NCBI GenBank assembly: GCA_019057795.1
Contig: JAHLWS010000070.1
Span: 96,001 to 160,000, forward strand
Direction: 5' to 3'
DNA: 64,000 bases
Source of the DNA: Promethearchaeota archaeon
Lineage (GTDB): Archaea > Asgardarchaeota > Lokiarchaeia > Sigyniarchaeales > SOKP01
Shown: positions 7,890 to 12,151 of the stretch, piece by piece
Layout: every line of letters begins with the position of its first letter
Position numbering within the stretch: position 1 is the stretch's first letter
Made by a program: the position numbers and the translations under genes
The notes under the pieces: generated by a model
The model's input: the letters and a program-made list of their open reading frames with translations, nothing else
Told to the model about the DNA's origin: nothing
The model's database searches: none

Positions 7890-8312
7890 TCAACTGGTCT
7901 TTCTTTTAGCGAATAAGGATTTTAACTCACCCATAATAGCCCCTCTTAAACTTACAGGGCTGGCTGGACGAGGTCCGCCAGGTCCGCCAGGTCCGTCAGG
8001 TCCTCCAGGTGGCCCTCCAGGTGGCCCTCCAGGCGGTGGTGGGGCGCTACTTGGAGCTGTAGGTGCTGCAATGACAGGAGCTGCCCCAGTTCCTCTCGTT
8101 CTAAGTGCCGAAACATCATTATTTATAGAATTGATTTGCGATTCTAATGTTGAAATTCTTTGACCAACAACCGCTAAAGATTGATCTACTAAATCTGGTA
8201 TTCTTAGAATCATTGACATCATTTTTTCAACAACATCGCCAAATGTATTTAACTTTTCTTCAAGAGGGGCTTTTCTTGTTTCTTGCATGAAATTTGCGAA
8301 TTCTTCGGCCAT
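7890..8312 (-). CDS. Coiled-coil + poly-proline + C-terminal amphipathic/basic helix protein (candidate actin regulator)
   Basis: Heptad region, then APPPPGGPPGGPPGGP, then RGAIMGELKSLFAKRK. The ORF is solid; the function is inferred. Confidence 0.75.
   Translation of the reverse strand: MAEEFANFMQETRKAPLEEKLNTFGDVVEKMMSMILRIPDLVDQSLAVVGQRISTLESQINSINNDVSALRTRGTGAAPVIAAPTAPSSAPPPPGGPPGGPPGGPDGPGGPGGPRPASPVSLRGAIMGELKSLFAKRKTS
7972..8044 (-). repeat. GC-rich 9-12 bp coding tandem repeat (Pro/Gly)
   Basis: ggtccgcca and ggtggccctcca units on the + strand encode PPGG/GPG repeats. Confidence 0.8.
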
Positions 8313-8455: not shown

Positions 8456-9088
8456 TTAACTAGCCTTGTTGACGGAGTTTTTTAAATTAACCCAGAGATC
8501 ATCCACTTCATTCCTAACTTGTAAAAATTGATTAATTTTTTTTAATAGTACATCCCTTGCACGATCAAAATCTCTTTGGGAGTCATTCAATTCAGATTCC
8601 AATATTTTTATCTTTTCTCCTTCGATCAAATCGTTTTTCTTTTTTTCGACAGATAACGCTTTTTTAATAACAACGCTTCTTTTACTGGCTACTTCGGCCA
8701 ACGCTGTAGCAAATTCATATTTTTTTTCTACTAAATAATCTTTTTTTACTGCGAGGTCTTTAATCGAATCTATGTACTTGTTATTTATTTCGATATATTC
8801 ATCATTTTTATGGATGATTTCCTGAAAATATTTTACCTCCTCGTCTTTGATATTTGATCTTCTCTCTCTTACTAGCGTTTGCATTTGCTTTAATACATCT
8901 CTAAACATCCTATTGACCATATCTCGTGTAAGATTTACTTTTCTCAAGTTATCAGCGTATTTTTTTTGAGAATCGATTAATGTAGTCTGATTTTTCGCTA
9001 ATTTTTTTATTTGGCTTACTAATTCTTTTTCCATGCTTGCTAATTCAAGCTCATCTTCATGTGTTATAATTGGGCTCATTTCAATCAA
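8456..9088 (-). CDS. All-helical coiled-coil protein, BAR-domain-like
   Basis: About 205 aa, almost no Pro or Gly, three long helices; alternative ATG at 9079. The fold is inferred. Confidence 0.65.
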   Translation of the reverse strand: MIEMSPIITHEDELELASMEKELVSQIKKLAKNQTTLIDSQKKYADNLRKVNLTRDMVNRMFRDVLKQMQTLVRERRSNIKDEEVKYFQEIIHKNDEYIEINNKYIDSIKDLAVKKDYLVEKKYEFATALAEVASKRSVVIKKALSVEKKKNDLIEGEKIKILESELNDSQRDFDRARDVLLKKINQFLQVRNEVDDLWVNLKNSVNKAS

Positions 9089-10229: not shown

Positions 10230-11303
10230 TTACATTTTATACCTTAAAATAGCAATCAGAGATCCTAAATCAATAATCTGTTGTCCTGTCGGGTGTTCAC
10301 TGTTTAGAATATGAACTCTACCACCAATTTTTTCAACTCCATTAATAATACTTTCGATTTTTAATTTTTGTTCTTTTGAGGCACCTCTAATTAAAATATC
10401 AGCACAAAATAATTCCTTTACAGCACCTTTTTCTGTTGCATTTGAAATCTCGTCAAAACCAATAGCAATAATATCTGAGTCTGTACTAAATAATTGTAAT
10501 ATTTCTTCAATTTTTTCTGTTTCCTGTAATATTTTTACATTTTTTTTTAAAATTTTTAACTCTTTTGATTTTAAAGTCTCCAAAATAGCACTTTCAGTTC
10601 CGGAGCTGGCTTGAATGTTATAAATTTTTGGTAGATATGTAGACTGTGTTCTTTCTTTAAGAAATTGATTGAAATGAACCTTTGTACTACCAGGCCCACA
10701 TATAACTAATGTATTTATTTTTGTATTCTTTATATTTTCGTCGATAAGCCTAAGGATATCACTATAAAATTCTTCGTACGCTTTATTTCTATAAGATTGT
10801 TCGTATCTTTTACCAGGAATATTTTTTTTTATAGTAGCTATTCTTTTATGACTGAAATTTGTTATTAGAGAGATTGTAGCTAACCCCGTCTCGATTGCAA
10901 TTATTAACATTATAAAATCAGTTTCGAATCTTGACGATTCCTTAAGACGTTTTATTTCGCTCTTTAACCACTTCTCTTTATTTATTGTTAGTTTTTGGTT
11001 AGGTTCAATATTAAAAGTGTGATATGTTCCAAAAGTTACTAAATCCTCCGGACCCTCTATAATAGTACCTTTTACTCTTAATCTATTTGAAAATTCATGA
11101 AAAGCGACAGATTCAACTTTTAATTTCAAGTACATTGGTTTTCTTTCTCCTTTAGAACCTTCCTTTAAAACAACTCTTCTATATGTTCGTGCTAAAATTT
11201 TATCATTTTTAGCTATTATGTTATAGAGAGTCCATAGATCGTTTAAGATCTCTGTTTTAACTGTAATAACTTCCTTCTTTTTATCTATTTCCAGAATTTT
11301 CAT
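10230..11303 (-). CDS. pelA: mRNA surveillance/ribosome rescue protein pelota
   Basis: DLWTLYNII, FHEFSNRLRVKG, GTYHT, IPGK, G.LIAILRY motifs. Confidence 0.95.
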   Translation of the reverse strand: MKILEIDKKKEVITVKTEILNDLWTLYNIIAKNDKILARTYRRVVLKEGSKGERKPMYLKLKVESVAFHEFSNRLRVKGTIIEGPEDLVTFGTYHTFNIEPNQKLTINKEKWLKSEIKRLKESSRFETDFIMLIIAIETGLATISLITNFSHKRIATIKKNIPGKRYEQSYRNKAYEEFYSDILRLIDENIKNTKINTLVICGPGSTKVHFNQFLKERTQSTYLPKIYNIQASSGTESAILETLKSKELKILKKNVKILQETEKIEEILQLFSTDSDIIAIGFDEISNATEKGAVKELFCADILIRGASKEQKLKIESIINGVEKIGGRVHILNSEHPTGQQIIDLGSLIAILRYKM

Positions 11304-11443
11304 TTAAATTATCAAACTCCAAATTATAAATTTAAGATATATAATTAAGTATAGTATAAATCTAAAGACTAACTATCTAAGGTTTGATATATTAGACAAA
11401 ATAAAGAAAAAAATAATAAAATACGACAAAGACAAAAAATTTA

Positions 11444-11596
11444 TTATTTTGCTCCTAAGGCTTCTTTGACCTTTTCTAATTCTTCCATTCGTTTCTTTTT
11501 CTCTTCTTCACGTTTTTTGAGGTCTTCTTCGTCAACCTTTTGGAGCGAAACACCTTTTTTGATTTCTTCTTTTAGTTCTTTACCTACGGGCGTCAT
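11444..11596 (-). CDS. 50-aa microprotein with WH2-like motif and charged helix
   Basis: MTPVGKELKEEIKKGVSLQKVDEEDLKKREEEKKKRMEELEKVKEALGAK*. ATG start, tandem TAA TAA stops, purine-rich coding bias, fills the intergenic gap; below the ORF-track cutoff. Confidence 0.75.
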   Translation of the reverse strand: MTPVGKELKEEIKKGVSLQKVDEEDLKKREEEKKKRMEELEKVKEALGAK

Positions 11597-11704
11597 TGTT
11601 ACTCAACACTTTTTATTTTATTCTCTTTTTTGGGTACAATTACAATACTTTTTATGCACAAATTATGATAGAATTTATTTATAAGTCTTGGTTTTTAGAT
11701 AATG

Positions 11705-12151
11705 TTAAATCTTCAAAATCATTAAATAAGCGCTTTTCTGTTGTCGGTAATAGTTCTCTATTTTCTGTCCAATTTGGAACCCAAATTTTTGATACAACCA
11801 AATGGCAACTTTATTTTTAGAGTTCACATTTAAAACTATTACTTCAATATTGTTCATTTCTTTTATTTTGTTTAAAGTATATTTTAATAGATGAGATCCA
11901 TATCCTTTATTCTGATATTGTTTACTAATAAGCAAATTAATTAAATTTACTCTACCTTCTCGATCTTGAATAACAATAATGAATCCAACAATTTCATTTG
12001 AACCATCATCATTTATCAACTTAAAAAAGAAAGTGTTATTTACGATAAGATTGAGAATTGAATTTTTAGAAAAAGCATCTTTCTTGAAAGTATTACTTTC
12101 CAATTTGAATATTTCATCTAAATCCTTAAGACTAACAGTGTTTATTCTCAT
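11705..12151 (-). CDS. rimI: GNAT N-acetyltransferase, RimI/Ard1 family
   Basis: YQNKGYGS acetyl-CoA motif, LNV..N..A..LY.KFGF, NYY. Confidence 0.85.
   Translation of the reverse strand: MRINTVSLKDLDEIFKLESNTFKKDAFSKNSILNLIVNNTFFFKLINDDGSNEIVGFIIVIQDREGRVNLINLLISKQYQNKGYGSHLLKYTLNKIKEMNNIEVIVLNVNSKNKVAIWLYQKFGFQIGQKIENYYRQQKSAYLMILKI

Follow-up and report, generated by a model that had tools for sequence, protein, structure and literature searches.

Actin regulation in Asgard archaea is currently explained by profilins and gelsolins only, and a 2026 Nature paper on the motility of L. ossiferum reads its Lokiactin co-immunoprecipitation (co-IP) in that way (PMC13716822). An Asgard gelsolin (2DGel) has a WH2-like linker of the LKKT type that lies on actin by crystallography (PMC9433394, PMC7444086), and the profilin of Leishmania has a WH2-like helix that contacts the actin cleft (PMC10907219). 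Here we describe a 50-codon microprotein gene at positions 11444–11596, minus strand, of a 64,000-nucleotide stretch of a Promethearchaeota genome of the order Sigyniarchaeales (assembly GCA_019057795.1, contig JAHLWS010000070.1, positions 96,001 to 160,000; the whole stretch is called the window, and plain coordinates refer to it). A full-text search of the literature on Asgard WH2/thymosin or Lokiactin found no description of this protein family, and just the four-residue linkers of 2DGel. In our view the most economical reading is that the protein is a module of about 46 residues that binds actin in the manner of WH2 domains and beta-thymosins, and we put the probability of direct, monomer-type actin binding by the 50-mer at about 0.5.

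Conservation and distribution of the microprotein gene

The gene has an ATG start, 50 codons and a TAA stop (11444–11446) followed by a second in-frame TAA, and the frame with its quoted stretch is as a preliminary description, made from the DNA letters alone, had given it. That description also called the gene unannotated, which is right in part only, as several NCBI records of metagenome-assembled genomes (MAGs) list homologs as 'hypothetical protein'. A word-indexed protein search found 229 homologs of 48–51 amino acids (aa) with 74–98% identity, all in Asgard MAGs. Conservation across Lokiarchaeia, named in advance as a check, is thus present, but it is limited to one order. In an alignment of 53 sequences I12, K14, G15, V16, L18, K20, R29, R36, E39, L40, K42, L47 and G48 are invariant; L8, K13, Q19, V21 and D22 are each conserved in at least 90%, and position 4 is always V, I or L. 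The I, G, L and K positions of the proposed motif (I12, G15, L18 and K20) therefore do not vary among the homologs.

Such a frame is short, rich in K and E and lies in an AT-rich genome, so one could in principle take it for conserved regulatory or other non-coding DNA between its two flanking genes, for the acetyltransferase and Pelota. In 17 orthologous loci, however, differences at the three codon positions stand at 785:258:2290, the mean proportions of synonymous and nonsynonymous differences (pS and pN) are 0.69 and 0.093, and the median ratio of nonsynonymous to synonymous rates (dN/dS) is 0.10. The reading frame is open in every genome searched, and the L. ossiferum ortholog has been seen by mass spectrometry, with peptides that cover 43.5% of it. 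The codon-position pattern and the detected peptides refute the non-coding explanation for practical purposes: this is a real protein-coding gene under strong purifying selection, and it is translated in a cultured relative.

In the same genomes the microprotein is 75–96% identical, versus 62–78% for Pelota (95% in the nearest genome) and 43–70% for the GNAT acetyltransferase (85% in the nearest). It is thus more conserved than both of its neighbors, as would be expected if the entire peptide served as a contact surface for a partner that is itself very conserved.

In a survey of 301 genomes sampled across the phylum, the protein family is present in 63 of 68 genomes of the window's own taxonomic family (f1) and in all seven of its sister family (f2); in the other 28 taxonomic families of that sample it was not found, except for weak partial matches in four of 76 genomes of one family, f9. 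All 63 genomes of the order with at least 95% completeness carry the gene, and so do both cultured Lokiarchaeia. It is a near-universal gene of one Lokiarchaeia order and not of Asgard archaea overall. Genus g57 of f9 has helical proteins of 258–311 aa (L059:749-1522:+, L060:654-1586:+, L061:684-1616:+) with an internal canonical L-K-K-V at the same spacing; their stretch E-L-K-x-S-I-L-x-G-V-S-L-K-K-V matches the N-terminal half of the family profile only (E 3e-5 to 1e-4 per genome).

Similarity to WH2 and beta-thymosin modules

The WH2-like spacing that had been claimed for the microprotein is present, in the form L8-x3-I12-x2-G15-x2-L18-x-K20-V21. In this 30% G+C genome the pattern occurs once in 1.35 million residues of open reading frames (ORFs) of at least 100 aa versus zero to two times in shuffled sequences, so the motif by itself is within chance; it is its conservation that lifts it above chance.

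AlphaFold2 with the family alignment (predicted local distance difference test score, pLDDT, 87.6) gives a helix over residues 4–14, a non-helical segment over residues 15–22 and a second helix over residues 23–49. The N-terminal helix (11555–11587, minus strand) is amphipathic with a stripe of V4, L8 and I12, and is the one that we propose would enter the actin cleft. The segment G-V-S-L-Q-K-V-D (11531–11554, minus) forms the LKKV-like core of the WH2-like motif, and the long charged C-terminal helix (11450–11530, minus) carries a signature of R29, E32, K33, K35, R36, E39 and L40, in which R36 and E39 never vary across the wide family and the tandem repeats described below always have the corresponding R. 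As modeled, helix, extended segment and helix follow one another in the layout of WH2 domains and beta-thymosins. The amphipathic N-terminal helix, the Gly linker and the L/K/V segment stand at the fixed spacing of WH2, and the protein aligns residue for residue with the WH2 repeats of N-WASP, residues 15–22 falling on its 'G-x-Q-L-K-K-V'. The free-peptide layout of the beta-thymosins is likewise found, in 50 residues that stand alone with a Shine-Dalgarno-like element and terminator-like T-runs. A Foldseek search of the 50-residue model against the PDB gave zero matches, as expected for two helices.

Profiles from a narrow (A1) and a wide (A2) family alignment were searched against 177,635 distinct PDB sequences. 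The tandem WH2 construct of N-WASP, 3m3n_W, ranks first with both, at E 3.1e-3 (A1) and 2.6e-4 (A2), and again with a separate profile of 27 repeats of the tandem paralogs, at E 4.1e-3; these values sum three repeats of an engineered chain, and the single-repeat scores are not significant, which weighs against the WH2 assignment. The A1 and A2 matches also include N-WASP 2vcp_D and the WH2 domain of MIM (2d1k_C), and the nine matches of the repeat profile include N-WASP and two Spire chains. This evidence for a WH2 relation is consistent but modest. We also considered a resemblance to eukaryotic TMA7 and dropped it for want of Pfam support.

Longer proteins that contain the module

We searched 1.84 billion representative sequences exhaustively with the profile, and among the 54 matches are several longer proteins with the module. 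The first group, of 251–387 aa, begins with a profilin-like domain, after which come between one and four modules and then another, C-terminal domain. Profilin (PF00235) is the best or second-best Pfam match of the N-termini of P0144, P0151, L049 and L052, with E 2.5e-4 to 8.5e-3 and 16.6–21.6 bits, below the cut-off of 25, and residues 1–140 of P0151 match the solved Loki and Odin profilins 5zzb, 5yed and 5zza by phmmer (E 1e-4 to 3e-4). The AlphaFold2 model of a profilin fusion is poor (pLDDT 47.8, from an alignment of six sequences); Asgard profilins head its Foldseek matches at E 0.16–1.7, which is not significant.

The second group consists of proteins of 488–497 aa in which ten modules run head to tail with a period of 46–48 residues and no linkers. 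This ten-repeat paralog occurs in eight of 14 f2 genomes and in none of 134 f1 genomes; the cultured MK-D1 has a homolog of it at L032:1507-2970:-. The tandem repeats and the profilin fusions both have the hydrophobic pair on the helix that is missing in the single-module protein.

In further fusions the module is combined with a leucine-rich repeat (LRR), Ras-like GTPase, RING-like or ribbon-helix-helix domain. Proteins made of a Ras/Arf-like small GTPase, the module and a ribbon-helix-helix domain are found in f1 (L051:727-1782:- and L057:789-1739:-), alongside RING-like variants and others in the order LRR, module, ribbon-helix-helix. The significant matches of the published Lokiactin co-IP include an Arf GTPase (bioRxiv 10.1101/2025.11.30.690169). 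Finally, P0165, a metagenomic protein of 169 aa with three LKKT-type repeats, matches the family profile at E 6e-5. It was considered as a bridge to an annotated eukaryotic WH2 protein; its WH2 and WIP matches are weak and it has no annotated relatives, so the bridge is unproven.

Lokiactin co-IP and proteomes of L. ossiferum

Lokiactin co-IP data and proteomes of L. ossiferum are available (Radler et al., bioRxiv 10.1101/2025.11.30.690169, Supplementary Table 2; published as PMC13716822), and we traced the listed proteins to ORFs of the f2 genome G327, a single contig of 6.0 Mb, by mass and gene order. Read from its second ATG, the G327 actin ORF has 377 aa and a monoisotopic mass of 42.747 kDa, and matches GNAMCCOK_03343 (Lokiactin, 42.75 kDa); G327 is thus L. 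ossiferum B35 or a near-identical strain. The two 2DGel genes of G327 set the gene-index scale at about 887 genes per Mb.

The ten-repeat protein of G327 (L034:1501-2964:-) has 488 aa and a monoisotopic mass of 56.414 kDa, and its gene lies 56.5 kb, or about 50 genes, from 2DGel1 (GNAMCCOK_04136), which predicts an index of 4086. Since both mass and index fit, we identify it with GNAMCCOK_04085 (listed at 56.41 kDa). This protein is enriched in the Lokiactin co-IP with log2 4.53 (adjusted p 0.0021, 44 peptides, 70.5% coverage), slightly above Lokiactin itself (log2 4.44) and above every gelsolin, and it is present in all 16 proteomes. It is not mentioned in the main text of either version of the paper. 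Because this ten-repeat relative co-purifies with an Asgard actin, the 50-residue protein is probably an undescribed actin regulator.

The single-module ortholog (L038:1456-1665:+ in G327) is annotated from a GTG start as 69 aa and 8.239 kDa with a predicted index of 2437, and corresponds to GNAMCCOK_02436 (8.24 kDa), detected with five peptides and in 16 of 16 proteomes. Its identity to the window's protein is 48%, and the WH2-like motif is degenerate in it, with the Gly missing and Met in place of Leu. GNAMCCOK_02436 is not significantly enriched with Lokiactin (log2 0.57, p 0.042, adjusted p 0.105), so this ortholog is translated and its association with Lokiactin is not established by the co-IP. 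Another small protein, GNAMCCOK_03900 (6.54 kDa, log2 2.53), was considered as the ortholog and rejected, as neither its mass nor its gene index fits.

Several other strong co-IP matches are likewise unnamed in the main text of the paper, namely GNAMCCOK_00333 (37.5 kDa, log2 9.2), 02751 (67.05 kDa, log2 7.7) and 04250 (20.6 kDa, log2 5.1), together with the small proteins 03085 (4.41 kDa) and 03900.

The co-IP cannot separate filamentous from monomeric actin, and the module might instead bind the side of the filament, one helical module of about 46 residues per subunit as in nebulin; the ten-repeat protein would then be a stabilizer or ruler and the 50-mer a decorator of single subunits. The unbroken head-to-tail array of ten repeats, the long helix that makes up most of each module and the poor retention of the single module in the co-IP, as expected of a weak side binder with one site, all agree with this. 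Set against them are the sequence likeness, which is to a cleft-binding motif, the profilin-like fusions, which point to monomers, and the failure of the nebulin and tropomyosin families to match in Pfam scans of the microprotein and the family members. We consider side binding improbable.

A proposed actin-binding module and its alternatives

Taken as a WH2/beta-thymosin-type module, the microprotein would place its N-terminal helix in the cleft of the actin monomer, and the extended G-V-S-L-Q-K-V-D would climb the face of actin, bringing L18 into a pocket and K20 against an acidic patch; a second contact with actin would come from the long, conserved C-terminal helix. The cleft residues Tyr143, Ile345, Leu346 and Leu349 have been named for actin (PMC10907219), and an acidic actin pair meets the LKKT motif (PMC9433394). 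The Lokiactin of the window's genome is L003:1474-2616:+, of 381 aa. These four cleft residues and the acidic pair 24/25 appear to be kept in it, in what we take to be the rabbit numbering. In its free form the 50-mer would hold Lokiactin monomers or escort them, modules fused to profilin-like domains would deliver actin, and the ten-repeat paralog would organize several actin subunits. We infer direct binding by the single module, its binding site and, purely as inference, a preference for monomers over filaments; the binding geometry is drawn by analogy only.

Several observations weigh against a WH2-type module. The Pfam check on PF02205 (gathering score 23.1 bits) that the preliminary description had proposed came out negative: with a limit of E 10 the WH2 profile does not match the microprotein, the ORF is likewise absent when all six frames of the genome are searched with PF02205 at that limit, and formal WH2 membership fails. 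When family members were scanned one by one, just three of 48 had sub-threshold WH2 matches (best E 0.007), and 24 of 48 had weak matches to DUF3006 (best E 4e-4), which we take as helix composition. Position 9 of the single-module proteins is K or Q and not the second Leu of WH2 (the Lys that had already been remarked on at a normally hydrophobic position is Lys9), and their L-Q-K-V has one basic residue. Across the wider family conservation is highest not in the WH2-like part but in the KxxRxxEL helix at the C-terminus, a feature that WH2 lacks. The conserved neighbors (GNAT, Pelota and radical SAM genes) are non-cytoskeletal, and many of the fusions pair the module with domains that are not specifically actin-related. 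The single-module ortholog is not significantly enriched with Lokiactin, and a co-IP performed after formaldehyde cross-linking does not prove direct contact.

The protein might instead be a generic charged helical unit for interaction or oligomerization with no direct link to actin, serving as partner or substrate of the adjacent GNAT or having a partner in translation quality control, beside Pelota. The WH2 likeness would then be due to chance or composition and the co-IP to indirect association or antibody cross-reaction. The unmatched WH2 profile, a motif that alone is within chance, the conserved order GNAT-microprotein-Pelota, the LRR, GTPase, RING-like and ribbon-helix-helix fusions, the unenriched ortholog and the DUF3006 matches in half of the members all speak for it. 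It does not account for two independent profiles that rank WH2 proteins first in the PDB, for the existence of profilin-like fusions, or for a repeat paralog that is enriched as strongly as Lokiactin with 44 peptides; moreover, the Pelota adjacency is lost in L. ossiferum, so a link with Pelota is not obligatory. We regard this explanation, including its account of the WH2 likeness and the co-IP, as unlikely, if a serious competitor.

The WH2/beta-thymosin-type module is the reading we prefer, the WH2 interpretation of the preliminary description being borne out in part, and that the 50-mer binds actin in one mode or another seems to us fairly probable. A wider proposal is more tentative, and we rate it at somewhat short of an even chance: that the family is a third class of actin regulator beside profilins and gelsolins in one Lokiarchaeia order, comprising a free monomer-binding peptide, a profilin-fused delivery device and a ten-repeat nucleator or template of filaments, and that it arose, or was retained, independently of eukaryotic WH2. 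Common ancestry with the WH2 of eukaryotes is unproven, and convergence is no less likely an explanation; a family found in a single order lends no support to a pre-eukaryotic origin of WH2.

If the module does bind actin in this way, the archaeal cytoskeleton would gain a layer acting on the monomer pool or on nucleation, and one of the strongest co-IP matches would be explained. It would also be a clean case in which the commonest actin-binding peptide motif was either reached by convergence or inherited from a deep ancestor. Since the peptide can be synthesized and the family is present in both cultured Lokiarchaeia, this can be tested directly.

Local signals and neighboring genes

All local signals of the gene are on the minus strand. 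A putative Shine-Dalgarno-like GTTGAGT (11601–11607) lies 5–11 nucleotides upstream of the ATG, and most of the 17 orthologous loci have GTTGAGG or GTTGAGT in the corresponding position. A TATAAT-like stretch at 11657–11670, about 65 nucleotides upstream of the ATG and conserved in position among these loci, is a candidate archaeal TATA box. Just past the stop, T-rich runs (T6 and T7; 11401–11440) resemble archaeal oligo-T terminators, and such runs are found in 16 of the 17 loci. Together these three elements suggest that the microprotein gene may be a separate transcription unit.

The upstream neighbor, a GNAT acetyltransferase of 148 aa (11705–12151, minus), is adjacent in both families of the order. 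The downstream neighbor, Pelota (357 aa; 10230–11303, minus), is adjacent in f1 and has been lost from this position in L. ossiferum. In f1 the gene order is CutA1, an unknown gene, a nucleotidyltransferase, radical SAM, GNAT, the microprotein, Pelota and radical SAM; of this synteny only the GNAT adjacency is left in G327. Thr, Ala and Ser are typical substrates of N-terminal acetylation. Without its Met the microprotein would begin with one of these three residues, and the GNAT gene is directly upstream in both families (in G327 at L038:882-1367:+); that the microprotein is a substrate of the adjacent GNAT is speculation.

Farther along, 7890–8312 (minus) encodes a protein of 140 aa with a coiled-coil N-terminal half, a poly-Pro/Gly tract of about 27 residues, a C-terminal helix and a basic tail. 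It is conserved in f1 and f2 and has no Pfam match. Its C-terminal helix reads P-V-S-L-R-x-x-I-M-x-E-L-K, and a helix of the form P-[IV]-S-L-R-x-x-I-M-x-E-L-K also precedes the module in the LRR fusions L050, L055 and P0171. Proteins that recruit profilin-actin have this kind of layout, poly-proline and then an amphipathic helix. The gene lies 3–3.5 kb from the microprotein gene in three f1 genera and is unlinked to it in G327 and G213; its L. ossiferum ortholog was not traced in the Lokiactin co-IP sheet. Between it and the radical SAM gene, 8456–9088 (minus) encodes an all-helical protein of 210 aa with no Pfam match.

Comparison with known systems

Arcadin-2 of the Crenarchaeota is a short archaeal helix that occupies the groove of an actin homolog and sequesters monomers; it acts on crenactin. 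It belongs to another lineage, and we know of no sequence likeness between it and the microprotein. To date the 2DGel linker is the one WH2-like element reported from Asgard archaea; it consists of four residues lying between two gelsolin domains, with no helices of its own and no sequence relation to the microprotein family. Trypanosomatid profilin combines a profilin and a WH2-like helix in one polypeptide, as do P0144, P0151, L049 and L052; there the helix is inserted in the profilin fold, whereas in the archaeal fusions one to four complete modules come after the profilin-like domain.

The tandem-WH2 nucleators (Spire, Cordon-bleu and VopL/VopF) are comparable to the f2 ten-repeat paralog, which is an array of modules that co-purifies with Lokiactin, and Spire chains are among the PDB matches of the repeat profile. 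The archaeal array differs in its ten repeats of 46–48 residues with no linkers, and in its absence from 134 f1 genomes.

The beta-thymosins (PF01290; thymosin beta-4, ciboulot, actobindin and tetrathymosin) share with the microprotein the form of a free peptide of 43–50 residues with an N-terminal helix, an LKKT-like segment and a C-terminal helix, as well as the occurrence of single and multi-repeat forms; the role proposed for the microprotein, sequestering or escorting monomers, is also like theirs. In the microprotein the C-terminal helix is longer and carries a KxxRxxEL signature of its own, L-Q-K-V-D-E stands in place of LKKTET, and Pfam Thymosin has no match in the microprotein or in 48 family members.

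WH2 itself (PF02205; N-WASP, WAVE, WIP, MIM and Spire) differs in that the microprotein falls below every Pfam threshold, has K or Q for the second Leu in its single-module form, and has an obligatory, highly conserved C-terminal helix of 25 residues with no WH2 counterpart; the family is also confined to a single archaeal order, and common descent is unproven. What the two have in common is a short amphipathic helix followed by G-x-x-L-(K/Q)-K-V at identical spacing, and an occurrence singly, in tandem and near profilin-related functions; a WH2 construct is also the best PDB match of the family profiles.
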